Origin: a virus
Taxonomy: Duplodnaviria > Heunggongvirae > Uroviricota > Caudoviricetes
DNA length: 43,784 nt
Direction: 5' to 3' (one strand)
IMG/VR virus record: IMGVR_UViG_3300042946_001496
Shown: positions 1,861-32,878 of the stretch, piece by piece
Layout: each line of letters opens with the position of its first letter
How positions within the stretch are numbered: position 1 is the stretch's first letter
Program-made: the position numbers and the translations under genes
Notes under the pieces: model-generated
Seen by the model: only the letters and a program-made list of their open reading frames with translations
Told to the model about the DNA's origin: nothing
The model's database searches: none

Positions 1861-1962
1861 GTGAAATATTGCCGGAGTGCTCGGACGTGAAATGCTATTC
1901 TTTTCCCAGCATATGATATACTCTGACAAATTCTTACAAAATTCCGTTTGGTGGTACGCTGG

Positions 1963-2090
1963 GGAGGTGAGCGACTACCTTCTTAGTTGGTCCGGTATGA
2001 CGCATGATTCAAGTTGTGCGTTGAAAGTTGGGACAAAAAGCCGATAAGTAAGGGTACACAGGGTTCCCCAAGCCCTACAGATCCCTGAAT
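1963..2090 (+). ncRNA. Candidate structured RNA (ORF-less cassette)
   Basis: Follows promoter 1955; no ORF; stems GTCC(1990)/GGAC(2031), ACGCA(2000)/TGCGT(2017), CAGGG/CCCTG. Confidence 0.35.
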
Positions 2091-2091
2091 T

Positions 2092-2474
2092 GTAAGCTAT
2101 ACAAAACCCAATTTAATTTAAACGAACTAGAGGTCAAAGTCCGGTTTTAAATGTGGTTAATGCTAGTTTCTTCACCACAAGGTCTTTAATACAACAAGGA
2201 AAAGGAATGAAACCTGGAGATAGCATTTTTGAAGACATCATTTCTCTCTTTGTAATTGTTTTCACTCTTTGTCAACCTAGCATAGCAATTTTGTGTGTTA
2301 ACACCTTGTTTGGACTCGATATTCAATATACGCCAGCTAACTACATATCAGCGGCGATTTTAATCTTCATCCCAATTGGAAATAACATGATTTACACCAC
2401 CAAACCATCACGGTTCCCAAATTGAAGCCTTAAGTAAGCTATACAAAACCCAATTTAATTTAAACGAACTAGAG
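2092..2474 (+). repeat. Perfect 41-bp direct repeat (2092-2132 and 2434-2474)
   Basis: GTAAGCTATACAAAACCCAATTTAATTTAAACGAACTAGAG twice, flanking the 2207 ORF. Confidence 0.9.
2207..2425 (+). CDS. Small hydrophobic (probable membrane) protein
   Basis: ATG 2207 preceded by AAGGAAAAGGA; two hydrophobic stretches (IISLFVIVFTLC..., YISAAILIFIPIG). Confidence 0.65.
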   Translation: MKPGDSIFEDIISLFVIVFTLCQPSIAILCVNTLFGLDIQYTPANYISAAILIFIPIGNNMIYTTKPSRFPN

Positions 2475-2483
2475 TGAAACCCG

Positions 2484-2723
2484 ATGAAATATATCATTGT
2501 TGCTGATGAAGGTTTTGAAAAAGCCATTTTGTTTGATGAACTGTTGAGTCACAAAATGGTAGCAGGTTTAACACCTGTGGTTTCTGCTGGGTTTTGTAGT
2601 CTTATTGTTGACAACTTCCAACAATCAACTGTTCAAGTATGGGGAGAAAGTGTTACCCTTAAATTGAAGTCTCGCATCACCGATGCTGCATTAATTCTTG
2701 ATGCGGTAAATTCAAGCCTTTAA
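2484..2723 (+). CDS. Hypothetical protein
   Basis: ORF track; follows second 41-bp direct repeat. Confidence 0.7.
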   Translation: MKYIIVADEGFEKAILFDELLSHKMVAGLTPVVSAGFCSLIVDNFQQSTVQVWGESVTLKLKSRITDAALILDAVNSSL

Positions 2724-2747
2724 CCTTTACAAGCAAAAGCTACAAAC

Positions 2748-2978
2748 ATGACTAAGAAAGAACTGCTTGAGCTTTTGAAGGATGTGCCGGATGATGGTTT
2801 GATTGTTGTTCATGGACATTCTGATGGTGGTGGTTATAATGATTGTTTTGATGTAGAGGAAAAAACTATTGCCCGCACTGTTCCTTCTGGACACGCTTGG
2901 AATTGGAGAGGACAATACGAAGAACCTTGGAAAGATACCAAACCAGAAGATATCATTAAGGCATATGTAATTACTTGA
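2748..2978 (+). CDS. Hypothetical protein (acidic)
   Basis: ORF track, co-oriented and closely spaced. Confidence 0.7.
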   Translation: MTKKELLELLKDVPDDGLIVVHGHSDGGGYNDCFDVEEKTIARTVPSGHAWNWRGQYEEPWKDTKPEDIIKAYVIT

Positions 2979-3112
2979 CTTCCATGCAGAGTGTGGTAGA
3001 CTAAGAAAACAAGGAGACAAACAATGACAATTAACGAATATATGAGTGTCTCTAGACTTAATTAATCTAGCCTATGCTTAAGCGGATTGATTATCCCGCC
3101 GTGCATGACACT

Positions 3113-3156
3113 AAACCCAGGACTAGACTAAAGATTCTAGTCCTGGGTTTTTTTCT
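3113..3156 (+). terminator. Intrinsic terminator
   Basis: AACCCAGGACTAGA-loop-TCTAGTCCTGGGTT followed by T-run. Confidence 0.85.
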
Positions 3157-3318
3157 GCTCTTATCCCTAAACTTAACTTATTAATGCCTGAAAATATATC
3201 TTACCTTGATAATATATTAACAATAATAATATATTGTAAGTCTTTAAGTCTAGCAGTTGGTGGTACGCTAGTAGGGTGTGACGGAATGAGTTCCAACAAA
3301 AACACGAGGGTTAAAAAC

Positions 3319-3621
3319 ATGGCTAAGGCTGCTAAGGTTGATGTTCAGGCTGGTCAGGTGGGTCGTAAGGTCGGTCAGAAGAGTGTGGACGTTGAGACGT
3401 TCATCAAGACGCTTGTCAATGTCCACCGTAAGGGTGGAACGCAGACGATGGTTGCGGAGACGCTTGGCATTACGCCAGCGGCTGTTAGTCTCCGCATCAA
3501 GTATCTTCGAGATGCGGGTGTGAAGGGTCTGCCGGAGTTCGATAATCGTGGTGGTAACACCGCTGGTAAGGTTGTTGAGCGTGCTAAGGCTGCTCTTAAG
3601 GCTATGGGCATCAAGGGTTGA
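3319..3621 (+). CDS. Winged-HTH DNA-binding protein, paralog 1 (most divergent)
   Basis: ATG 3319 after GAGGG; QTMVAETLGITPAAVSLRIKYLRDAG resembles BirA-type/HTH_11 HTH. Confidence 0.8.
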   Translation: MAKAAKVDVQAGQVGRKVGQKSVDVETFIKTLVNVHRKGGTQTMVAETLGITPAAVSLRIKYLRDAGVKGLPEFDNRGGNTAGKVVERAKAALKAMGIKG

Positions 3622-3715
3622 ACTTGAAGCCTAAACTTGCTGGGGGTAGGGTTTAATCGCCCCACCCCCAGCATTTTTTTTAACTTACCACTCCGGTCTG
3701 GTGGTACGCTGTATG

Positions 3716-4035
3716 GGTGTGAGGAAGTAAGCGACTCTGGGCAACATAAGCACCATAAAGTCAGTAGTTCGTCTTTAGTCCTCATAGGTGATGCGTACTC
3801 AATTGTAAGTCTGACGTACGGTTTCCTTTAGCCCTTGGTGGCTACTTTACTCTTCGGAGTAATGAAGTTAATGACTTACTAAAGGGCTAGTGTATTAAGA
3901 ACCTTGTGGTGAAGAAACTAGCATTAACCACATTTAAAACCATCCTTTAAGGTACGCAAATAAATTCAATAAGATAAAATAAAGATACCAGAAACGGATG
4001 AAGGGTGGGTTAGAGTAAAATCTAGCCCACCCTTT
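3716..4035 (+). ncRNA. Candidate structured RNA of about 300 nt containing the 41-nt antisense element
   Basis: Between promoter 3705 and terminator near 4000-4042; no convincing ORF; TGAGGA/TCCTCA, CGTAC/GTACG, TAGCCCTT/AAGGGCTA, TTACTC-TTCG-GAGTAA. Confidence 0.55.
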
Positions 4036-4093
4036 TGTTTTTTCTCTTGAAAAAGAAAAGTTTTAAGCTATAATAAATAAAGCTACGATTAAT

Positions 4094-4167
4094 GCCCCTA
4101 TCGTCTAACGGTTTTAGGATAACAAACTTTCACTTTGTAGATCGGAGTTCGATTCTCCGTAGGGGTA
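4094..4167 (+). tRNA. trnE: tRNA-Glu(TTC)
   Basis: Acceptor GCCCCTA/TAGGGGT, anticodon arm ACAAA-CTTTCAC-TTTGT, T arm CGGAG-TTCGATT-CTCCG; CCA not encoded; TTGAAA-N16-TATAAT at 4047-4074. Confidence 0.92.
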
Positions 4168-4249
4168 TTTTTTAGTTTTAAATCTGAGTTTTTTACACTA
4201 ATTTAAAGCATGAAGACATGTTTTAAATGTGGTGAAACAAAAGATTCCC

Positions 4250-4276
4250 AGCGTACCACCAACCAACAACAGTAAA
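4250..4276 (-). promoter_or_regulatory. Single inverted copy of the cassette promoter
   Basis: AGCGTACCACCAACC at 4250-4264 is the reverse complement of GGTTGGTGGTACGCT. Confidence 0.75.
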
Positions 4277-4395
4277 TAAAAAAAGCCTAATTAAGCAGCA
4301 CAAGTTTTAAAAAGAAACTTACTACTGTCAGTTGGTGGTACGCTGGTGGGGTGTGTGAGACGGACAACAAACAACCCCCCAGTAAGGAGTCAGTT

Positions 4396-4644
4396 ATGGC
4401 TGGTCGTTCTAGTGTCGATATGAAGACTTTCCTTGGTAAGGTCGTTGAGGCTTACCACAATGGTCACAATCAGTCGTGGATTGCGGCTGAGTTGGGTGTG
4501 AGTGCAGCCGCAGTTAGTCTGCGGATCAGCGGACTGCGTAAGAAGGGAGTTAAGCTCCCGGAGTTGGTGAGCGGTAGGGGTTCGGTTAACACCGTTGAGG
4601 ATGCAAATAACATCCTCGCTGATCTCGGTTTTGATGCTGAGTGA
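4396..4644 (+). CDS. Winged-HTH protein, paralog 2
   Basis: ATG 4396 after AAGGAG; NQSWIAAELGVSAAAVSLRISGLRKKG. Confidence 0.88.
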   Translation: MAGRSSVDMKTFLGKVVEAYHNGHNQSWIAAELGVSAAAVSLRISGLRKKGVKLPELVSGRGSVNTVEDANNILADLGFDAE

Positions 4645-4765
4645 GCTTAGCGTTAAGCCAACTGGTAAGGGGGAGGTAACACTCCCCCTTACCTTTTTTT
4701 ATACCTACTATCCTTAACTTAACTAACTAAAACTTATTTAAATTACATTGCTTTGGTGGTACGCT

Positions 4766-4794
4766 GTTAATATATTATCAGCCAATATATTAAC
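4766..4794. promoter_or_regulatory. Palindromic operator-like or mini-hairpin element, copy 1 (others at 5445-5473 and 6119-6147)
   Basis: GTTAATATATT-N7-AATATATTAAC immediately after a promoter and before a second promoter. Confidence 0.6.
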
Positions 4795-4891
4795 AACGCA
4801 AAAATATTAATGCGACTACACGTTTGGTGGTACGCTGGATAACTAGTCCCCATTTTGTCCCCATTTCACCCTTTGTTAAGGAGTGTTAATT

Positions 4892-5341
4892 ATGGATAGC
4901 CGAGATTTTGCTCGTAAGATGGGCGATTGGTACAAAAGCATCGACAAGGTTGCTTTCACCGCCACTGTTAGTTACAATAATTGGGACAATGATGATAACG
5001 AGGTTGAGGAAACCTTTACTGTTCCTTTCAAGTACACGGTTTGCAGTCTTTGCAACGGTGTTGGAACTCACGTTAATCCCAGCGTTGATAGTAACGGTTT
5101 GACTAGTGAAGATTTTGCCGAGGATGATGATTTCAGGGAAAGTTACTTTAGTGGTGCTTACGATATGCCTTGCAATAAGTGTCATGGTAAGGGACTAACA
5201 CCTGAATATGATGAAACTCGTGCTAGTCCTGAGATTAAGAAAAAGATGACATCTTACCTAAAGTATCGTAAAGATGTTGCTGAAGATATGGTTAACGATG
5301 CTTACACTCGTCGTATGGAAAATGGTGGTTATGGTTACTAA
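4892..5341 (+). CDS. Protein with DnaJ-type CxxCxGxG zinc-finger motifs
   Basis: ATG 4892 after AAGGAG; CSLCNGVG and CNKCHGKG. Confidence 0.75.
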   Translation: MDSRDFARKMGDWYKSIDKVAFTATVSYNNWDNDDNEVEETFTVPFKYTVCSLCNGVGTHVNPSVDSNGLTSEDFAEDDDFRESYFSGAYDMPCNKCHGKGLTPEYDETRASPEIKKKMTSYLKYRKDVAEDMVNDAYTRRMENGGYGY

Positions 5342-5521
5342 CCACATTAACTAAAACTAAACAGAAAGGAAGGGCTAACAACCCTTCCTTTTTTTTACAA
5401 TAATATCTTAACTTATTTAAATTACATTGCTTTGGTGGTACGCTGATAATATATTATCAGCAAATATATTAACAAACATGTATTAATTCTTAAGCGTCGG
5501 TTCTGGTGGTACGCTGGAACA

Positions 5522-5642
5522 GTGGGAGTTCAACCCCGTGGTAATCGGTCCTAACAGACCAAGCAATACCACAAACTTGAACTGTGCCTAGATCTTGTTC
5601 CTCCGTGGGACTTTAGGCGAGAAAAAACGGAGGCTAATTTTT
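5522..5642 (+). ncRNA. Candidate structured RNA with 3' H-type pseudoknot
   Basis: AGTTCAA/TTGAACT, GTGGTA/TACCAC, GGTC/GACC; interleaved GCCTAG(5586)/TTAGGC(5613) and CCTCCGT(5600)/ACGGAGG(5627); T-tract follows. Confidence 0.55.
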
Positions 5643-5723
5643 TTTTCTTAACAGTTCGGTTTGGTGGTACGCTGTGGTGGTGTAAGGCAACGAACGATAA
5701 AACCTCCAATAAGGAACGATAAC

Positions 5724-5981
5724 ATGGGTCGCCCATCTGGTAAGAATGCGGTTTCGATGAAGACTTTCCTTGGTAAGGTCGTTGAGGCTTACCACAATGG
5801 TCACAATCAGTCGTGGATTGCGGCTGAGTTGGGGGTGAGTGCAGCCGCAGTTAGTCTGCGGATCAGTTCCCTTCGTAAGAAGGGAGTTAAGCTCCCGGAG
5901 TTGGTGAGCGGTAGGGGTTCGGTTAACACCGTTGAGGATGCGAATAACATCCTCGCTGATCTCGGTTTTGACGCTGAGTGA
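5724..5981 (+). CDS. Winged-HTH protein, paralog 3
   Basis: ATG 5724 after AAGGAA; near-identical to paralog 2 from MKTFLGK onward. Confidence 0.88.
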   Translation: MGRPSGKNAVSMKTFLGKVVEAYHNGHNQSWIAAELGVSAAAVSLRISSLRKKGVKLPELVSGRGSVNTVEDANNILADLGFDAE

Positions 5982-6194
5982 GCTTAGCGTTAAGCCAACT
6001 GGTAAGGGGGAGGTAAAACTCCCCCTTACCTTTTTTTATACCTACTATCCTTAACTTAACTAAAACTTAACTAACTAAACTTAATTTATTTAACTAAAGA
6101 TTGCTTTGGTGGTACGCTGTTAATATATTATCAACCAATATATTAACACCTAAAATATATTATTGAAAATCATTTCTGGTGGTACGCTGGGAAG

Positions 6195-6362
6195 GTGTCG
6201 AGGACCGACGTCATTCATTTCTTTGAGTGCGATCGGCAAGATACAGCGGCTGGTTCGCTGGTATATTAGAAAAAGTCTATTTAATTAAAAGAACGAAGAA
6301 TAGTAGATAAAAGTAGATAAATGGGTAAGGGAGACTATAGGATGCTGTAGTCTCCCTTACTT
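6195..6362 (+). ncRNA. Candidate sRNA family A, copy 1
   Basis: ORF-less cassette; GTGTCGAG..TTGAGTG..CGGCAAGAT..CAGCGG-CTGGT-TCGCTG; long terminator TAAGGGAGACTATAG/CTGTAGTCTCCCTTA. Confidence 0.6.
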
Positions 6363-6443
6363 TTTTACTTAACACCGATCTGGTGGTACGCTGGGGGTGT
6401 GTAAGGCAACGAACAGTAAACCCCAAAATCAAGGAACATTAAC

Positions 6444-6692
6444 ATGGCTGGTCGCTCTAGTGTCGATATGAAGACTTTCCTCAGCAAGGTTGTTGAGGCT
6501 TACCACAACGGTCACAATCAATCGTGGATTGCGGCTGAGTTGGGTGTCTCCCCTGCCGCTGTTAGCCTGCGGCTTAGTGGACTGCGTAAGAAGGGTGTTA
6601 GGGTGCCGGAGTTGGTGAGCGGTAGGGGTGGAAGTAACACCGTTGAGGATGCGAATAACATCCTCGCTGATCTTGGTTTTGACGCTGAGTGA
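6444..6692 (+). CDS. Winged-HTH protein, paralog 4
   Basis: NQSWIAAELGVSPAAVSLRLSGLRKKG; AAGGAA upstream. Confidence 0.88.
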   Translation: MAGRSSVDMKTFLSKVVEAYHNGHNQSWIAAELGVSPAAVSLRLSGLRKKGVRVPELVSGRGGSNTVEDANNILADLGFDAE

Positions 6693-6901
6693 GCTTAGCG
6701 TTAAGCCAACTGGTAAGGGGGAGGTAACACTCCCCCTTACCTTTTTTTTTAACATACTAACAATTAAAATAAACATAAAATCGTACCTTGGTAGTACGCT
6801 GGACTGAAAAATAACTAACACCTATTAATTTATTAATAAAGTCCAGTTCTGGTGGTACGCTATGGGGGTGTTCTTTAATTTAGCCTCACTGGAGCCTAGT
6901 C

Positions 6902-7099
6902 ATGGCGAAGAAAGTAAGCTTGGCTGAAATGAATCGGATCATCCACGAGCGGGGATTCTTGAAGCCTGAAGAGCGGCTTTTCACAAAGCCTTGTTGTCAT
7001 TGTGGAAACTACGTGAGAGAGCGGGAGGCTCTTTGTCCAACGTGTGTCAAAGAGATCGAAAACGATCAATTCGATGATGAATTGCAAATTCAAGATTGA
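6902..7099 (+). CDS. Small zinc-ribbon protein
   Basis: CCHC...CPTC; GGAG upstream; own promoter and terminator. Confidence 0.75.
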   Translation: MAKKVSLAEMNRIIHERGFLKPEERLFTKPCCHCGNYVREREALCPTCVKEIENDQFDDELQIQD

Positions 7100-7168
7100 A
7101 CTAAGGGGGGAAGTTACTAACCCCCTTAACTTTTTTACTTAACAGCGTTTTGGTGGTACGCTGGTAGG

Positions 7169-7316
7169 GTGTCGAGCAGCAACATCTCACTTTGAGTGGG
7201 GCGGCAAGATCCAGCGGCTGGTTCGCTGGTTATATATAAGGAAAAAATTAAGTAAAAAGTAAATAGTAGATAAATGGGTAAGGGAGACTATAGGACGCTG
7301 TAGTCTCCCTTACTTT
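7169..7316 (+). ncRNA. Candidate sRNA family A, copy 2
   Basis: Same ordered motifs and same long terminator as copy 1. Confidence 0.6.
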
Positions 7317-7354
7317 TTTACTTAACACCTGTTCTGGTGGTACGCTGTGGAGCT

Positions 7355-7491
7355 GTCAACAGTAGTCGTCGCCACTGCCTGAGTTGGAATCGCTAACCAA
7401 ACGTAAGCAGCGTGGACGGCTTCCACATTACACACATTAGCGACCGTAGTGTGCGACTATAGAGCCGGATCGTAAATGGCTCGCTGTTGAC
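7355..7491 (+). ncRNA. Candidate multi-stem RNA with kissing-loop pseudoknot
   Basis: Ends pair (GTCAACAG/CTGTTGAC); TAGTCG/CGACTA; CTGC/GCAG; TTGG/CCAA; CACAC/GTGTG; GAGCC/GGCTC; loop TCGCTAA complementary to loop TTAGCGA. Confidence 0.65.
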
Positions 7492-7564
7492 TTTTTAACT
7501 AACAACAGTTTGGTGGTACGCTAGGAAGGTGTTCGATAGGCTTCTACCTTTCAAGGAGTTAAAC

Positions 7565-7690
7565 ATGGGTTTCACCATGATCATTGGATGGAATATGCCT
7601 GACGGTAGCAGCGAGGCTGCCTACATTGATGGCATTATGAAACAAATCGAGCAGCAAAGACGAAAGCGTAAAAAGCGTCGTAAAAAGTAA
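7565..7690 (+). CDS. 41-aa peptide with very basic C-terminus
   Basis: Read by hand: MGFTMIIGWNMPDGSSEAAYIDGIMKQIEQQRRKRKKRRKK*; AAGGAG upstream; fills one cassette. Confidence 0.7.
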   Translation: MGFTMIIGWNMPDGSSEAAYIDGIMKQIEQQRRKRKKRRKK

Positions 7691-7803
7691 AACTAAAGGG
7701 GGAAGTTACTAACCCCTTAACTTTTTAACTAACAACCAGTTTGGTGGTACGCTATGGTGGCGTAAGGTAACGAACAACAACCCTCCAATTAAGGAACAGC
7801 AAC

Positions 7804-8052
7804 ATGGCTGGTCGCTCTAGTGTCGATATGCGTGTTTTTCTCGCCAAGGTCGTCGAAGCCCATAAGAAGGGCATGAATCAATCGTGGATCGCCAATGAAC
7901 TTGGCGTGACTCCTGCCGCTGTTAGCCTGCGGCTTAGTGGACTGCGTAAGAAGGGTGTTAGGGTGCCGGAGTTGGTTTCTGGTCGAGGCGGTAGTAATAC
8001 CGCTGAAGACGCAAATAACATTCTGGCTGATCTCGGTTTTGACACCGAGTGA
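7804..8052 (+). CDS. Winged-HTH protein, paralog 5
   Basis: NQSWIANELGVTPAAVSLRLSGLRKKG. Confidence 0.88.
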   Translation: MAGRSSVDMRVFLAKVVEAHKKGMNQSWIANELGVTPAAVSLRLSGLRKKGVRVPELVSGRGGSNTAEDANNILADLGFDTE

Positions 8053-8141
8053 ATGCCAGATTAAAAAGTAAGTTAAGGGGGGACTAACACTCCCCCCTTA
8101 ACTCTTTTACTAACAATAAACTCTGGTGGTACGCTGATGAA

Positions 8142-8245
8142 TTGTCCGCAGCGGCTGGTCTGCTGTTAAAAGAATTATTTAAATATTTCAAAATGTATTA
8201 ATAATTCTGGACAGGTTAAAGGGGGAGGTTACTAACCCCTTAACT
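8142..8245 (+). ncRNA. Candidate sRNA family A, copy 3 (short form)
   Basis: TGTCC(8143)/GGACA(8209) enclosing CAGCGG-CTGGT-CTGCTG and AGAATTATT/AATAATTCT. Confidence 0.5.
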
Positions 8246-8336
8246 CTTTTACTAACAATAAACTCTGGTGGTACGCTGTGGTGTTGTAAGTGAACGATTG
8301 ATTAGGCTTCCCGTTCACCTTCTTTAAGGATAACAA

Positions 8337-8474
8337 ATGTATGAAATAACTAGCGTTGACACTGGTAAAACCATTGTCATGACTCGGAGCGAGGCTGAAC
8401 AAATGTTCGGCAAAAATGAGTTTAAAGAGATGCTGGCGGGAAGTTTACCGCACCTAATAGTAGTTAAACTCTGA
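8337..8474 (+). CDS. 45-aa hypothetical protein
   Basis: Read by hand: MYEITSVDTGKTIVMTRSEAEQMFGKNEFKEMLAGSLPHLIVVKL*; AAGGA upstream. Confidence 0.7.
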   Translation: MYEITSVDTGKTIVMTRSEAEQMFGKNEFKEMLAGSLPHLIVVKL

Positions 8475-8573
8475 GGTTATTAAGGGGGACTAACCGTCCC
8501 TCTTAACTCTTTAACTTAACACACGGTTTGGTGGTACGCTGTTTGTGTGCCGGACCTTAAAAAGAGGATTAAG

Positions 8574-8843
8574 ATGATTTTCACCGCACAACAAGCTAGG
8601 GATAATAGCATTCTTAAAGCCACCTTGGATAAGATTTACGAAAAGATCAAAATCGTCAGCAAAGACAAAAATGATCTTACTATTGTTTTTGGTGAAAATC
8701 CCGATTTTGAATACTGTGATGCTTATCGCAATGAAGAAGACATCAAAGAAAATCTTGAAAAGGCTGGCTATGAGGTTCGTTGGGATTACACCACTCCCCT
8801 CGGCATCCCTACACTCTATATCGATTGGCGTTTTCCTAACTAA
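8574..8843 (+). CDS. Hypothetical protein
   Basis: ATG 8574 after AGAGGA, in frame with track ORF 8547..8843. Confidence 0.75.
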   Translation: MIFTAQQARDNSILKATLDKIYEKIKIVSKDKNDLTIVFGENPDFEYCDAYRNEEDIKENLEKAGYEVRWDYTTPLGIPTLYIDWRFPN

Positions 8844-8938
8844 AGAAGGGGATTAAATATCCCTAACTTTATACTTAACGACCTGTTGGTGGTACGCTGT
8901 GGTGGTGTAAGTTAAACCCTCAAACAAGAAAGAATATC

Positions 8939-9172
8939 ATGAATAACGACTGCTGTTGGCACTCCAGCTGGAAGAAGAACCACCCGGAACCCGTTGCCGC
9001 CCCTTGCGTTTATGATCTTGATTTCATTTTCAAGGCGATGGCTAACAAAACAAAGATTACAATTCAAGGGGTCACCGGAATTATCAGTGGTATCGAAACA
9101 ACGAGTGCGGACAATGGATACAGATTGAGTTTCTGCGATAGAGCCGGTTGGGTTGTAGTCGTTGCAAAGTAA
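8939..9172 (+). CDS. Hypothetical protein, 'YDLDFIF' paralog 1
   Basis: Shares YDLDFIF(K/N)AMA...G.I(S/T)GIE with 11576..11893. Confidence 0.75.
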   Translation: MNNDCCWHSSWKKNHPEPVAAPCVYDLDFIFKAMANKTKITIQGVTGIISGIETTSADNGYRLSFCDRAGWVVVVAK

Positions 9173-9263
9173 ACAGCTAAAGGGGGAAGTTACTAACCCC
9201 TTAACTTTCTTCTTGCAACAAGTTTGGTGGTACGCTATAGTGGTGTAACCCCGGAGAAAAGAT

Positions 9264-9530
9264 ATGAATGACATTCGTAGAGGCAGGGTTGTTACTGAAG
9301 AGTATCTTCAGTACGTTGATAGCATAGTCAATCAAGACAATAGTCTTGAAGACTTGGTGTCAGAAGTTATTTGCGGCAATCCTACAGACGTTGCCGCAAA
9401 GATTATCATTCAGTCTATGCGAAGGCTAGCAGAACTGGAACGTCCACGAAACCCGCTCGGAAGAACTGCTACATTTGAACAAAATGCCAATAGGGCAATT
9501 GACGAAACTTGCGAAAAGCATTTTGGGTGA
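9264..9530 (+). CDS. Hypothetical protein
   Basis: GGAG upstream; fills one cassette. Confidence 0.75.
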   Translation: MNDIRRGRVVTEEYLQYVDSIVNQDNSLEDLVSEVICGNPTDVAAKIIIQSMRRLAELERPRNPLGRTATFEQNANRAIDETCEKHFG

Positions 9531-9603
9531 AACTAAAGGGGGAAGTTACTAACCCCTTAAGTTTTTACTAACAAATAAGTTGGTGGTACGCTGGATGACT
9601 ATC

Positions 9604-9828
9604 ATGGAAATCAAACCCATCAACGACAATAACAGTCAATTTGACTTGGTAGAGTTGCGGTCAAGTCACTATTCGGCACCACAGCAAACTCCTCACTGTA
9701 AGATTCATGGAGCTATGAACTGTGTGGCTGTTCATGCTACAGGGAAATTGTGGCGTTGCATACAGAGTAATCAATTAAAGGATTGTCGGGCTGGGTGTGA
9801 GGAGTTAATAACAACACAGAACAAATGA
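9604..9828 (+). CDS. Cys/His-rich hypothetical protein, probably near-leaderless
   Basis: ATG 9604 lies 11 nt after the -10 hexamer at 9587-9592; CKIHGAMNC...WRC...CRAGC. Confidence 0.65.
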   Translation: MEIKPINDNNSQFDLVELRSSHYSAPQQTPHCKIHGAMNCVAVHATGKLWRCIQSNQLKDCRAGCEELITTQNK

Positions 9829-9881
9829 AGGGCTAACCCCTAGTTTTTAACTAACACCAAGTTTGGTGGTACGCTGTGGGG

Positions 9882-10170
9882 GTGTTCGATAAGTGTTCCT
9901 AAACCACAAATGTTTAGGGGTGTCAAAGGCAAAACCTTTGCAGTAGAAGCGGCTTGTTAGGTCGTGGATGTAAAGAGAAAACTTTGGCTTGAACCGGTAA
10001 TTCCCTGTAAGAATGGGTTAATCACCGGCAACCCCGGAGTAAGATAGCGGGGTTTTCTAAGTAAGAAGAAGGCAAGAGTAGTCGCAAAGGCGTACTCGTA
10101 GCCGATGGCGGGCAAGATCAGCACCTTTTGCTTCAATGCGGGTGTCGTCACGTTCGATTCGTGATAATCT
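9882..10170 (+). ncRNA. Candidate structured RNA of about 290 nt ending in a T-loop hairpin
   Basis: No credible ORF; successive hairpins CCTAAAC/GTTTAGG, AAAGG/CCTTT, CCGGT/ACCGG, AACCCCG/CGGGGTT, GAGTA/TACTC, GCACC/GGTGT; TCACG-TTCGATT-CGTGA at 10148-10164. Confidence 0.6.
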
Positions 10171-10229
10171 TACTTACAATACATTTGTGGTACGCTCTGC
10201 CAGTGTAAGCCACACACAAAGGAGAAGCC

Positions 10230-10562
10230 ATGAGCTACGAAGGCGTTGAAGAGTTCATTTGTAATAAGGGTCATTACTGGACTCTGGATGCCGGTGTCCT
10301 CCATTACGACTTCCTTGATAACATGAGGATAATGGAAAAGGTTGCTTGTCCGCATTGTAAGGAAACCCCAGCCTACACTTGTAGTGTTGATGAAACCAAT
10401 GGTTACGATCCTAACCTTCCATGTACCTTTCATGGACCGAAAATTGAAATCGGTTATGAGGATATTGAGATGCAGGATCACCACGGAAATAAATACTTCG
10501 TTAAGTTGGAACGATACAAACCGGACAATTCCACAAATCGGTGGAGAAAAGAAGGGGACTAA
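10230..10562 (+). CDS. Cys/His-containing hypothetical protein
   Basis: AAGGAG upstream; CNKGH, CPHC. Confidence 0.75.
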   Translation: MSYEGVEEFICNKGHYWTLDAGVLHYDFLDNMRIMEKVACPHCKETPAYTCSVDETNGYDPNLPCTFHGPKIEIGYEDIEMQDHHGNKYFVKLERYKPDNSTNRWRKEGD

Positions 10563-10657
10563 ACATCCCCTTACTTTTTAACTTAACAACCAGTTTGGTG
10601 GTACGCTGTGGTGGCGTAAGGAACGATAAACAACAACCTCCAATAAGGAACGATAAC

Positions 10658-10948
10658 ATGGGTCGCCCCTCTGGCAAAGATGCAATTTCGATGCAGACGT
10701 TTCTTGGTAAAGTGGTGGAAGCGTATCGCAACCACCACAATCAATCGTGGATCGCACGGGAGTTGGGTATCACTCCTGCCGCTGTTAGCCTGCGGCTTAG
10801 TGGGTTGCGTAAGAAGGGCGTGAAGGTGCCGGAACTGGTTTCTGGTCGAGGTGGAAGTAACACCGTTGAGGATGCGAATAACATCCTCGCTGATCTTGGG
10901 TTCGATGGCAACGATGAAGCGGATCATTATGCTGGTCCGATCGGGTGA
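10658..10948 (+). CDS. Winged-HTH protein, paralog 6
   Basis: ATG 10658; NQSWIARELGITPAAVSLRLSGLRKKG; C-terminal extension. Confidence 0.88.
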   Translation: MGRPSGKDAISMQTFLGKVVEAYRNHHNQSWIARELGITPAAVSLRLSGLRKKGVKVPELVSGRGGSNTVEDANNILADLGFDGNDEADHYAGPIG

Positions 10949-11046
10949 GTAAAATGGGGGGAGGTTACTAACCCCCGTTTTTTACTTTGATACGCTGTTA
11001 GTGGTACGCTAGCATGGTGTGAGAACCACCTTCAAGGAGGAACGGT

Positions 11047-11133
11047 ATGCAAGTCAACATGACATTCGTGGAACAGATAGTCTGCCTTGTTGCTCTGATA
11101 GCCGGGATTGTGTTTGCTGCGTTGTTTGGTTGA
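11047..11133 (+). CDS. 28-aa hydrophobic single-helix peptide
   Basis: Read by hand: MQVNMTFVEQIVCLVALIAGIVFAALFG*; AAGGAGG upstream; fills one cassette. Confidence 0.7.
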   Translation: MQVNMTFVEQIVCLVALIAGIVFAALFG

Positions 11134-11232
11134 AAAATAGGGGGGGAGGTTACTAACCCCTTTAACTAACACTTTGAGTTGGTGGTACGCTATGGTGGCG
11201 TAAGTGACAATCAACCCTTCAAGGAGTTCAAG

Positions 11233-11472
11233 ATGAAGACTCGCAAGACTGTCAACCTTGTCAAGTTCATGCAGACCATCGTCAAGGCTGCTGCAAACGG
11301 TCACAACCAGAGCGACGTTGCTCGTTCGCTGGGGGTTACTCCCGCCGCTGTTACCTTGCGGCTTCAGAGTCTCCGCAAGAAGGGCGTTAAGGTTCCTAAC
11401 ATCAATGCCAATGCCGGTTGGGTTGATTGCAAGATGACTGCTAGTGAGCGGCTGGCTGCTGCCTACCGTTGA
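11233..11472 (+). CDS. Winged-HTH protein, paralog 7
   Basis: ATG 11233 after AAGGAG; NQSDVARSLGVTPAAVTLRLQSLRKKG. Confidence 0.85.
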   Translation: MKTRKTVNLVKFMQTIVKAAANGHNQSDVARSLGVTPAAVTLRLQSLRKKGVKVPNINANAGWVDCKMTASERLAAAYR

Positions 11473-11575
11473 GTTAAGGTTAAGGGGGGAGGTTACTAAC
11501 CCCCTGTTCATTTAACCAAGAGTGGTTTGGTGGTACGCTGTGGTGGTGTAAGCCTCCAACAACATAAGGTGTGAA

Positions 11576-11893
11576 ATGACTGACGATGCCATCGGATTTA
11601 ACGGACGTCACAGCGTTGCGGTTCCTTGCGTTACGGAGCGTGTCGGCGTAGGTCTCACCCAAGGCGACCCGTTCGATGAGGAGGAAACGAGGATCTACGA
11701 TCTTGACTTCATCTTCAACGCAATGGCTAAGTCGTTGGACGTGGTTGTTGGTATGAAAAGGGGGAACATTACAGGCATCGAAAAGTTGGGGGGCGATGAA
11801 TATCGTCTTTGCCTTCAATGGCACGATAAACGTTTTTCTTACGGTTCCGATGCTCGTGATTATGCAACCATCACCGCAAGGCAACTAAAGTGA
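11576..11893 (+). CDS. Hypothetical protein, 'YDLDFIF' paralog 2
   Basis: Similarity to 8939..9172. Confidence 0.75.
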   Translation: MTDDAIGFNGRHSVAVPCVTERVGVGLTQGDPFDEEETRIYDLDFIFNAMAKSLDVVVGMKRGNITGIEKLGGDEYRLCLQWHDKRFSYGSDARDYATITARQLK

Positions 11894-11994
11894 AGTTAAA
11901 GGGGGGACTAAAAATCCCTCCTTAACTCTTTTACTTAACAACAAGTTTGGTGGTACGCTGTGAGGGTGTAAGACCTTAAATAAAGGAGACAGCA

Positions 11995-12210
11995 ATGCGA
12001 ATGTCCTTCAAGAGTCTTGAGTCGTTCGCTCGTGAGCGTGGCTACACTGTTGAGCGGAGGGGCAGGATGATTGAGTGGTGTCGCAATGAGGATCACTCAA
12101 TGATCGGTGTAGTATACAGTGTTCACGAAGCCTACAGCGAGATCAAACAGGATTGGGATAGATGGATAGTAAGGATCCACAACCATATACTCCACGGCAC
12201 GACCGGCTAG
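11995..12210 (+). CDS. Hypothetical protein
   Basis: AAGGAG upstream; last ORF-bearing cassette. Confidence 0.72.
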   Translation: MRMSFKSLESFARERGYTVERRGRMIEWCRNEDHSMIGVVYSVHEAYSEIKQDWDRWIVRIHNHILHGTTG

Positions 12211-12629
12211 TATCCATCTATTCATAACAAAGGGGGAAGTTACTAACCCCCTGTTCATTTAACACAAGGATAGTTTGGTGGTACGCTATAGAGTTGCAAC
12301 AAAGCCTTTAACAAAAAGATTTAACAAAATTAAAAATTAAAAAAATAATGTAAAAAAACTATAAAAAAAATAGTAGTAGGGGAGGGGGTTCCACCGCCAT
12401 TACACTCTTTTTCTTTTGTTCTTTTCGTTTTTTTCTGTAGGGTTTTAGATTTTTCAAAATTAAAAGCCCAACAACTTTATAAAAATCCCCATAACCTTAA
12501 AATATTAAAAAACCATTTTAGAAAAAAATGCGGCGGAAAAAATTTTCAATATACAGTAGGGTTTTTAAATAAAAAAGACTTTGGAAAAATCCAAAGTCTT
12601 TTAAAGGAGAAAAAACAAAAGAAAAGATT

Positions 12630-28750: not shown

Positions 28751-28972
28751 ATGGACAGATTTGATCTAGAAAACCAAATAAACAGTTTGTTAAATATAAG
28801 TGAAGATATAGAACTTTTATATAAAAATATTTTAGAAAATAAAATATCTAATGAAGAAATTGCTAATATACTAATTGGACTTAATGGGTTGATTAAACTT
28901 AGGCAAGATCAGTTGTTTGAAACAATGAAAATTATTTTTAAATTAGATGAATATAGTAAAAGTAATTTTTAA
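28751..28972 (+). CDS. Hypothetical protein (MDRFDLE type)
   Basis: ATG 28751 in frame with track ORF 28691..28972. Confidence 0.65.
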   Translation: MDRFDLENQINSLLNISEDIELLYKNILENKISNEEIANILIGLNGLIKLRQDQLFETMKIIFKLDEYSKSNF

Positions 28973-32299: not shown

Positions 32300-32878
32300 T
32301 TATCTTATATCTTCTCCACCATATTCTTCAGGAGTTTTTCCTTGCATTTCTAAACTTTTATAAAACTTATTTATAAGTTCATCATTCCAATAATTCTTAG
32401 CATTACTAATCAGCCACTGTTTACCAGCACTAAGAGGTACAATTTTTCCTGTTTTTTTATTTCTAAGACTTGCTTTTGAATTTAAATATCTGTCTGCTTT
32501 CAGTATTGGTGTAAAATTATTATCTTGTAGTGTTTCTGATCCTGTGTTGTATATGTAGCCAAATTTTATAATTCCATCATTTATTATTCTGTCCCAATCC
32601 CAAGATTGATTTATAAAATTATTCACAAAAAAATTTGTTTTATAACCCCGACTTCCTTGATAATAATTATTATTATACCTATATCCATTATCACTATCAG
32701 ATTCAGGTGGTACGGTATAGTTTACTTTTTCTCCTCGACTTCTTTCTATTGCTGTTTTACCCACAGCTAAAAGTCCTAAGCCAGCGGCTCCTAATGCTCC
32801 AAGAACACCTTCTTTGATTTTAAAGTCAGGATGTTTTTCTATCAGATAATCTTTAAAGCTATTCATTTTATTCCTCAT
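32300..32878 (-). CDS. Hypothetical protein with capsid-targeting-like motif
   Basis: [10 protein letters not shown] then Gly/Ala-rich hydrophobic segment [17 protein letters not shown]. Confidence 0.68.

Follow-up and report, generated by a model that had tools for sequence, protein, structure and literature searches.

Three candidate small RNA cassettes with a common, promoter-like hairpin in the early array of an uncultured freshwater phage

Cassettes A, B and C of the early array

We analysed a 43,784-nt stretch of DNA (the window) from an uncultured phage of lake or freshwater origin, which is best explained as a T4-like giant phage. The window is preceded by more than 80 kb of further phage genome. 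The early region holds an array of 32 cassettes that extends over 10.3 kb, uses one repeated promoter and more than 30 terminators, and has a GC content of 42–48% versus ∼30% in the remainder of the window. The array encodes seven winged helix-turn-helix (wHTH) paralogs, and its tandem-promoter modules carry A/T-rich palindromes, a style that is kept even in distant relatives. The promoter core, GGTGGTACGCT, is present in 34 copies at ≤1 mismatch where 0.1 would be expected, and its conservation is position-specific, as seen in a promoter matrix built from the array copies, on which the 32 array promoters score 16.5–29.9. This core can be read as an extended −10 element (TGG + TACGCT), with TACGCT and TACGAT as the variants found in relatives, and the array transcripts all begin with a conserved GGTGT leader. 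Reading the repeat as a Chi site was rejected, with the exact GCTGGTGG occurring only twice in the window and TGGTGG missing in distant relatives.

Three cassettes of this early region, A, B and C, each have a predicted transcript start 16–17 nt downstream of a copy of the array promoter (Table 1). A search for Shine-Dalgarno-led ORFs found none in A, B or C. Since the three are independent, non-coding and run from promoter to terminator, they very probably produce small RNAs, whose sizes can be estimated from the sequence at ∼173, ∼154 and ∼109 nt. Beside B, direct reading of the sequence identifies a gene for a 44-aa protein with an Arg/Lys-rich tail (7556–7690); this basic protein is present also in L046, a relative in which the hairpins described below are missing. 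A zinc-ribbon protein is encoded at 6902–7099. A Pfam search of ten small proteins neighbouring the cassettes found no RNA-binding family and picked out no partner protein.

Table 1. Positions of promoter, RNA and structural features of cassettes A, B and C in the window (RNA extents are estimates)
Feature	Position	Strand	Remarks
Promoter core of A	6178..6188	+	GGTGGTACGCT; second promoter of a tandem module, the first being at 6108
sRNA A, ∼173 nt	6194..6366	+	Start estimated from −10 spacing, end from terminator
SL1 of A	6196..6238	+	Closing helix UGUCG (6196–6200) / CGGCA (6234–6238), variable interior; consensus fold
SL2 of A	6244..6260	+	6-bp stem, CUGGU loop
A/U-rich single-stranded linker of A	6263..6320	+	Unpaired in fold; two-copy AGTAGATAAA tandem repeat
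Intrinsic terminator of A	6323..6368	+	18-bp stem, 4-nt loop, T tract
Promoter core of B	7152..7162	+	CAGCG 4 nt upstream, so that the promoter reads CAGCG-N11-CGCTG
sRNA B, ∼154 nt	7168..7321	+	Paralog of A by alignments and fold
SL2 of B	7211..7229	+	7-bp stem, CUGGU loop
Intrinsic terminator of B	7276..7321	+	One loop base different from that of A
Promoter core of C	8125..8135	+	Array promoter copy
sRNA C, ∼109 nt	8142..8250	+	Closing stem 8142–8147 / 8209–8214, SL2, A/U hairpin 8171–8208, array-type terminator ∼8215–8250
SL2 of C	8148..8166	+	5′ arm and loop as in A/B; 3′ arm CU, not UC

The two paralogs, A and B, are conserved in a mosaic manner. Identity between them is 9/9 at the 5′-end, 96% from CGGCAAGAT to SL2 and 98% in the terminator, versus 67% in the SL1 interior and 57% in the linker, which is not the pattern expected of uniform drift; the high identity in SL2 and the terminator could reflect recent gene conversion instead of selection. 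The sequence blocks on which the initial annotation paired these cassettes are present where it had placed them (GTGTCGAG at 6196 and 7170, TTGAGTG in both, and CGGCAAGAT at 6234 and 7202), but GTGTCGAG, though common to A and B, is in part the GGTGT start of every array transcript. The initial annotation's observation that the first hairpins differ in sequence with pairing kept does not amount to covariation: all 15 pairs of the A/B consensus fold lie in invariant columns, with zero compensatory changes, and the apical stems use the common TTGAGTG in different registers. The 5′ domains of A and B fold no better than shuffled sequences (z = −1.2 and −0.9).

The terminator had correctly been described as the same in both cassettes; we find one loop difference between them and a stem of 18 bp rather than 15 bp. 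This terminator type is private to the pair and is the strongest in the array. Following the hairpins, A and B share a tail of 43–58 nt of unpaired A/U-rich linker, the 18-bp terminator and a T6 tract, and in this they have a feature of Hfq-dependent sRNAs, a U-tailed terminator after an A/U-rich single strand, that is necessary but not sufficient for such a role. An origin of A and B from decayed wHTH genes was rejected, as SL2 matched against the gene start ATGGCTGGTCGCT gives a lower score than shuffled controls do. More generally, A and B have no similarity to any coding cassette and are therefore not decayed genes.

Cassette C does fold as the three-way junction that was first proposed, with a closing stem and two hairpins (z = −4.3), and across comparisons with shuffles this Y-shaped RNA, structured around SL2, reaches z = −3.5 to −4.3. 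A variant of C in run X15 (8171 A>C) lies at an unpaired junction. Compared with A and B, the SL2 hairpin is the sole common module: the flanks are not conserved and C is without CGGCAAGAT. A local alignment of A/B against C scores 25, which is borderline at about the 95th percentile of shuffled controls, and a covariance model of A and B finds SL2 of C at 12.1 bits with an E value of 0.73. What makes the match between A/B and C convincing is solely that it coincides exactly with the A/B block of highest conservation and that both differences keep pairing. To call these cassettes a three-member family is accordingly an overstatement, in that A and B are real paralogs but C is an unrelated RNA with one borrowed hairpin.

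The common hairpin and its likeness to the promoter core

The only element found in all of A, B and C is the hairpin with the CTGGT loop, in accordance with its earlier description as the common unit. The hairpin, CAGCGG-CTGGT-YYGCTG, occurs at 6244–6260, 7212–7228 and 8149–8165, and the 17-mer CAGCGGCTGGTYYGCTG has exactly three occurrences in the window and none in 100 shuffles. Both of the changes specific to SL2 of C keep pairing, a G-U becoming G-C and a G-C becoming G-U such that the two swap places. Each hairpin contains a single G-U wobble, which on the opposite strand would read as a C-A mismatch and which would be mismatched in duplex DNA too, and this fits a hairpin formed in RNA of the + strand. 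A second sequence, GGCAAGATCAGC, had been noted in another RNA, the 9865 RNA; it is indeed present there, but with a 1-nt indel relative to A/B and in a different fold, and a copy with one mismatch lies inside an unrelated late gene at 28902. The link of the 9865 RNA to A and B through GGCAAGATCAGC is near chance.

What is new in this analysis is the likeness of SL2 to the array's own promoter core. The loop of SL2, together with its 3′ arm, nearly repeats the core (G-TGGT--GCTG), and their alignment with the promoters is gap-free. SL2 of A and of B score 11.2 bits on the promoter matrix, a level at which 0.16 sites would be expected per 10.3-kb array, and SL2 of A has the second best non-promoter score on the + strand. 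A working array promoter combines the GGTGGTACGCT core and its −11 A with a T-rich or terminator segment before it and the GGTGT leader behind it; SL2 falls short of this, scoring 11.2 or 4.8 with the −11 A replaced. Since its loop and 3′ arm are among the best non-promoter matches to the promoter core in the window, the hairpin probably derives from a promoter copy.

Such an origin would also be expected of a recombination scar, in which SL2 is a decayed promoter copy left behind when cassettes were shuffled through their promoters and terminators, and the three cassettes would be filler or decayed units, perhaps transcribed, without a function of their own. The place of SL2 among the best non-promoter matrix matches and the loss of the −11 A (TTCGCT and TCTGCT), as in a dead copy, both agree with this, as do the cassette order, which differs between the window and L046, a rearranged joint (7311/7129) in one run, the lack of the family in relatives and the lack of covariation. 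We nevertheless consider a scar rather unlikely. A dead promoter has no cause to keep a complementary 5′ arm three times or to undergo a G-U/G-C swap that saves pairing, and the mosaic conservation of A and B, their private and unusually strong terminator, their dissimilarity to any coding cassette and the strong structure of C around SL2 (z = −4.3) also argue against it.

The hairpin could instead act in duplex DNA, either as an imperfect palindrome (CAGCG-N7-CGCTG) or through its −10-like non-template strand, and serve as a wHTH operator or a sigma-dependent pause site. Its palindromic form, its position at +13 to +65 from the promoters, its resemblance to an extended −10 and the seven wHTH paralogs in the array would all suit this role, which is still improbable given that every copy contains a single G/T mismatch, which only RNA would tolerate, and that the A/T-rich palindromes of the tandem-promoter modules are the obvious operator candidates. 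Moreover, the −11 A, which is essential to sigma-70 type −10 recognition, is missing from SL2.

We give a still smaller probability to SL2 being a deliberate mimic of the phage's early promoter core, such that the three abundant early RNAs (or their DNA) titrate or redirect whatever factor recognises GGTGGTACGCT. If this were true, the factor would be the host sigma/holoenzyme or a phage specificity factor, for example one of the seven wHTH paralogs, and the 32-promoter array would in this way time its own shut-off, a small-scale phage version of 6S-RNA logic. 6S RNA is a promoter mimic that binds RNA polymerase holoenzyme, and SL2, in copying the extended −10 core, likewise places a resemblance to promoter DNA in an RNA. 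However, 6S RNA, at ∼180 nt, opens into a large central bubble, and SL2 by contrast is a closed 6–7-bp hairpin without the −11 A, and the Rfam 6S models gave no match on A, B or C at E ≤ 10.

Distribution among strains, relatives and databases

The stretch is present in 22 freshwater DNA runs from 2016–2024, and contigs from other lake runs contain A, B and C with little or no change. There were no RNA runs among the sequencing-run matches to the stretch; two wastewater runs labelled 'RNA-Seq' contain only short, unlike pieces and are probably DNA. In a metagenome scan by way of the wHTH protein, which gave 11 loci, B and C were found only in L045, a near-identical strain in which C is identical and B is identical apart from a single additional linker repeat. 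L046 (83% protein identity) lacks A, B and C, even though it spans the syntenic positions of all three. Two neighbouring array ncRNAs are kept in L046 with compensatory changes, which makes ncRNA cassettes a true characteristic of this phage group. The three cassettes are missing also from five more distant relatives, and the family is not present in L049–L054 or in the 130-kb relative G001.

Searches for further members gave similar results. The covariance model built from A and B (R1) found no further member, and its match in L049/L050 (E = 2.1) is coding sequence. Rfam returned nothing on A, B or C at gathering score or at E ≤ 10, and megablast and tblastn against a phage collection returned no match. 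Scanning IMG/VR with the 17-mer gave 42 single matches, about the chance number and none with the array promoter, while the promoter plus leader found one relative, G001, without A, B or C, and no IMG/VR loci were found by the wHTH protein. The family is limited to one phage species, with no diverged homologs found, and A, B and C are best explained as strain-level accessory elements rather than as a core of the early programme.

Candidate roles and comparison with known RNAs

The initial annotation had offered an imitation of the tRNA D loop by the CUGGU loop, which would decoy an anticodon nuclease or another tRNA-directed defence. YUGGU is found in many tRNA D loops, and phage early regions often carry counter-defence functions. 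Yet neither ARAGORN nor the Rfam tRNA model (RF00005) has a match on 6194–8250 even at E ≤ 10, and ARAGORN finds only the phage's three true tRNAs (tRNA-Glu, -Thr and -Ser), none of which has a CUGGU D loop and whose D arms are unlike SL2. A D arm has a 3–4-bp stem and a 7–11-nt loop with A14, G18-G19 and A21, whereas SL2 has a 6–7-bp stem and a 5-nt loop without A14 or A21, and both cloverleaf and T arm are absent. In addition, anticodon nucleases recognise the anticodon loop, not the D loop, with which D-loop mimicry is at odds. This decoy reading of A, B and C is unsupported, and we regard it as extremely unlikely.

The CsrB/RsmZ sponges, to which the decoy was likened, resemble A, B and C in the idea of an RNA that shows a loop motif to titrate a protein. 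They differ in having many GGA loops per RNA, while the loops of A, B and C are CUGGU, UUUCUU and CUU, and a search of the three found neither repeated binding sites per RNA nor GGA motifs. With one CUGGU loop per RNA, multiplicity would come solely from the three separate genes.

A lambda nut site is similar in having, shortly downstream of an early promoter, a conserved linear block with a small pentaloop hairpin beside it, and by analogy with nut/boxB the hairpin and a boxA-like CGGCAAGAT could load a factor on RNA polymerase such that downstream terminators are read through. Antitermination of this kind would suit an array with more than 30 terminators and the gene for the Arg/Lys-rich-tailed 44-aa protein adjoining B, but is very improbable here: the CUGGU loop is not GNRA-like, the boxA consensus is absent, C is without CGGCAAGAT, the basic protein is kept in L046 where the hairpins are not, and the strongest terminators of the array stand directly after A and B.

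RNA anti-CRISPRs and pseudo-ToxI are further phage RNAs that imitate host or defence RNA. Racr RNAs are solitary repeat units in which a separately promoted hairpin leads into A-rich sequence, and a similar layout in our cassettes would let the hairpin and its A/U-rich 3′ flank imitate a host class 1 repeat. There is hardly any probability in this, as the Rfam CRISPR-DR families have no match on A, B or C, the flanks differ between A/B and C, and exact matching over 185,579 species genomes (one genome each) revealed the hairpin nowhere as a tandem array but only as single matches, at about the chance number and scattered over unrelated GC-rich genomes. For a type III antitoxin or pseudo-ToxI, the pseudoknot-forming tandem repeats of 34–36 nt are absent from 6000–8400, which contains only 5–15-nt micro-repeats.

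Closer in organization are two stable RNAs from the tRNA region of phage T4, species 1 and 2 (bands C and D). Four ncRNAs are likewise annotated in jumbo phage PA5oct (PMC7318152). Like these, A, B and C lack ORFs, are short, run from promoter to terminator and lie in the early or tRNA-bearing part of a large phage of myovirus type. They have no sequence or Rfam relation to the T4 and PA5oct RNAs, however, belong to an array in which one promoter recurs across 32 cassettes, and include two paralogs.

The explanation that we favour, to which we give about an even chance, is that A and B are duplicated ORF-less early units, that C is an unrelated compact RNA with the same module, and that SL2 is a docking site for a putative partner. 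Each unit would be fired by the array's extended −10 type promoter and stopped by its intrinsic terminator, giving RNAs of the estimated sizes with base-paired 5′ ends. SL2 most likely arose when a promoter copy paired with a CAGCG lying upstream of it and so formed a hairpin; B's promoter still shows this arrangement, and the module may then have reached C via the cassette recombination that shuffles the array. The RNAs would be abundant and early and would display SL2 to one putative protein partner of host or phage, and in A and B the A/U-rich linker and strong terminator may serve as a stabilising, Hfq-type 3′ module. Predicted antisense duplexes with the first 110 nt of every array transcript were no better than those of shuffled sRNAs.

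Since the family is limited to one phage species and is without diverged homologs, its value is that of a lead within the more remarkable 32-cassette array, and it should not be taken to show a new counter-defence mechanism. Few studies have addressed phage-encoded small RNAs, however, and this lake phage devotes several strongly promoted early cassettes to what are very probably such RNAs. Should SL2 prove to bind A, B and C to one partner, they would be a case of modular RNA evolution that is easy to test, in which a promoter-derived hairpin has been moved between scaffolds.

The promoter array

The array in which the three putative sRNA cassettes A, B and C lie comprises 32 miniature transcription units and has a GC content of 42–48%, against ∼30% in the remainder of the window. 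The GGTGGTACGCT core of this array is present in 34 copies at ≤1 mismatch where 0.1 would be expected, 32 of them on the + strand within the array. Conserved blocks follow one another in the order T-rich segment (the tail of the preceding terminator), TTTGGTGGTACGCTG and GGTGT leader, and the repeat reads as a putative extended −10 promoter, TGG + TACGCT, which would fit a TAnnnT −10 element since both TACGCT and TACGAT versions are present in distant relatives.

In three distantly related metagenome loci (L049, L052 and L053) the promoter comes in two classes, ...GTGGTACGCT and ...GTGGTACGAT, and an invariant CTGTTC stands ahead of it where the array has TTTG. G001 (L043), a large relative on an IMG/VR contig of 130,685 bp, has only two GTGGTACGCT copies; one of them forms a complete terminator–promoter–GGTGTAAG composite of exactly the style seen in the array units, showing that single cassettes exist outside arrays. 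The promoters of each tandem module of the window are 61–71 bp apart and flank A/T-rich palindromes (TTAATATATT...AATATATTAA type), which are multiplied in the related locus L046 and recur in the same style in distant relatives such as L049; these are likely operators for the seven winged helix-turn-helix (wHTH) paralogs encoded in the array. One promoter continues into a perfect copy of the E. coli Chi octamer, GCTGGTGG, of which the window has only two exact copies, not above chance.

Coordinates of the cassettes and neighbouring features (window positions unless a locus is named)
Feature	Promoter	Extent	SL2 hairpin
RNA A	6178	6194-6366 (+)	6244-6260
RNA B	7152	7168-7321 (+)	7212-7228
RNA C	8125	8142-8250 (+)	8149-8165
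Promoter array		1950-12290	
Tandem-promoter modules		4755-4836, 5434-5515, 6108-6188, 6790-6861	
A/T-rich palindromes		L046 694-820; L049 2125-2330	
Chi octamer	4334	4342-4349	
5505 RNA, ORF-less		5505-5660; L046 112-270	
7336 RNA, ORF-less		7336-7511; L046 1471-1640	
65-aa zinc-ribbon protein		6902-7099	
44-aa protein		7556-7690	
Coding CTGGT-loop hairpin		10835-10853; L044 818	
ORF-less cassette of L053		L053 5322-5600	

Architecture of the putative RNAs

We infer transcription of A, B and C from promoter and terminator architecture only. No ORF with a Shine-Dalgarno site ahead of it was found in any of the three, nor a reading frame common to A and B from the same start. A and B are alignable with each other over their whole length, while C aligns with them over the promoter, the 5′ TGTC and one hairpin only, and its terminator is of the array type. 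The initial annotation had proposed a three-member family; every sequence block it quoted is found in the window, and A and B do share an intrinsic terminator with one loop difference, though the stem is 18 bp rather than 15 bp. The three are most honestly described as two paralogs plus a third candidate RNA with one hairpin in common.

This hairpin, SL2, contains the 17-mer CAGCGGCTGGTYYGCTG, which occurs exactly three times in the window and in none of 100 shuffles. The local alignment of A/B with C scores 25, which places it near the 95th percentile when shuffled queries are aligned to all cassettes, but the match is credible because it coincides with the best-conserved A/B block and both differences keep pairing: in the 3′ arm of C, UC becomes CU, with G-U and G-C swapped. 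A fourth CTGGT-loop hairpin, of seven pairs, falls within the coding sequence of a wHTH paralog (PELVSG codons); the stem sequence is unrelated, and such hairpins arise by chance in the GC-rich array.

In the predicted fold of A and B, a 5′ stem–loop (SL1) is followed by SL2 (6–7 bp with a CUGGU loop), then by a linker that is A/U-rich and unpaired, and finally by the terminator; their 5′ domains are no more stable than shuffled sequences (z −1.2 and −0.9). C folds into SL2 and an A/U hairpin joined by a closing stem of six pairs, with a stability far beyond that of shuffled sequences (z −3.5 to −4.3). The helix UGUCG/CGGCA, formed by both of the ‘conserved blocks’ pairing with each other, closes the best SL1 common to A and B, and part of the block GTGTCGAG is the leader common to every array transcript. 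Pairing in A and B had been described as kept despite different sequence, yet all 15 pairs of the consensus fold are invariant columns with no compensatory changes, and since the shared TTGAGTG pairs in a different register in the apical stem of each, this is not covariation. The link drawn to the 9865 RNA through GGCAAGATCAGC is also near chance: the copy there differs by an indel, lies in a different fold and has a one-mismatch twin in an unrelated late gene.

Likeness of SL2 to the array promoter

A promoter weight matrix was built from 32 promoters and scanned over both strands of the window. The promoters ranked first and a site at 32703 next, followed by the SL2 copies in A and B, both with 11.2 bits; SL2 of C scored 4.8 bits. 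Under a first-order Markov model of the array, 0.16 sites per 10.3 kb are expected to reach 11.2 bits or more. The alignment of SL2 with the promoter is gap-free, with G-TGGT--GCTG invariant in 6/6 sequences, and CAGCG precedes the B promoter, which therefore already reads CAGCG-N11-CGCTG. SL2 has lost the −11 A of the −10 element to another base (TTCGCT, TCTGCT), so it should be inactive as a promoter. Most simply, SL2 would have arisen from a promoter copy turned hairpin. Its likeness to the promoter is a new point beyond the initial annotation; no similar promoter-like hairpins were found in ncRNA cassettes of relatives.

Signs of constraint are seen when A and B are compared: they agree at 9/9 positions of the 5′ end and share 96% identity over CGGCAAGAT–SL2 and 98% over the terminator, but only 67% over the interior of SL1 and 57% over the linker. 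In L045, a near-identical strain, the linker also differs in length from that of the window by one AGTAGATAAA unit. Each SL2 has exactly one G-U; in duplex DNA this would be mismatched and on the minus strand it would become C-A, so the element is best understood as + strand RNA. The main rival to our preferred reading, namely that SL2 is a recombination scar within functionless cassettes, we consider less likely. In contigs from other lake runs A, B and C are unchanged except for 8171 A>C in the unpaired junction of C, which adds little because these phages are too close overall.

Possible roles and distribution

None of the tRNA tests run supports the proposed tRNA mimicry by the CTGGT loop. 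Features of a CsrB-type sponge, a ToxI-type repeat, a nut site and 6S RNA were each sought in A, B and C and did not match, and a search of the Rfam CRISPR-repeat families and, for exact copies of the hairpin, of 185,579 species genomes gave no support to a CRISPR-repeat mimic. The A/U-rich linker and strong terminator of A and B fit the 3′ module of Hfq-type sRNAs; target pairing within the array was never better than shuffled controls. No RNA-binding family is recognisable in neighbouring proteins. The 65-aa protein directly upstream of B (CC-x-C ... C-x2-C) has a weak double-zinc-ribbon match below cut-off. The gene for the 44-aa protein is flanked by the 7336 RNA and a wHTH gene; the protein, which is conserved in both L045 and L046, has no Pfam family and ends in an Arg/Lys-rich tail, QQRRKRKKRRKK, that could be an RNA-binding arginine-rich motif.

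The phage collection gave no match to the window, and 11 metagenome loci were retrieved by way of the neighbouring wHTH protein. L045 carries B and C. L046 (83% protein identity, same promoter) covers the syntenic region, including the 5505 RNA and extending past the gene at 8530, although none of A, B and C is there; the 5505 and 7336 RNAs are kept, with two and one compensatory pairs, respectively, all double-sided. The family is also absent from five more distant relatives and the 130-kb IMG/VR relative. R1, a covariance model of the kind the initial annotation had advised and built from A and B, recovered A, B, the L045 copy and, weakly, the C hairpin, and nothing further. Matches to the 17-mer in IMG/VR and 185,579 species genomes were at chance level and never in arrays, and no diverged homologs that could show loop or stem conservation were found among the loci and databases searched. 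Given these absences and chance-level matches, the family is confined to one phage species and is accessory.

Cassette order is fluid in natural populations, as seen over 5400–10300 of the window against sequencing runs X9, X15 and X18, where one contig joins 7311 back to 7129 and another skips 7513–7695; short run contigs break at promoter/terminator repeats, and the order in L046 differs from that of the window. Between two promoters of L053 lies a GC-rich cassette of ∼250 nt, unrelated in sequence to A, B and C, which indicates that ncRNA cassettes are a general habit of this phage group.

Judged from sequence, the candidate family is a real and previously undescribed finding of narrow distribution, and our best reading, to which we give about even odds as a whole, is that A, B and C are real early sRNAs that offer a putative partner a promoter-derived hairpin to dock on.
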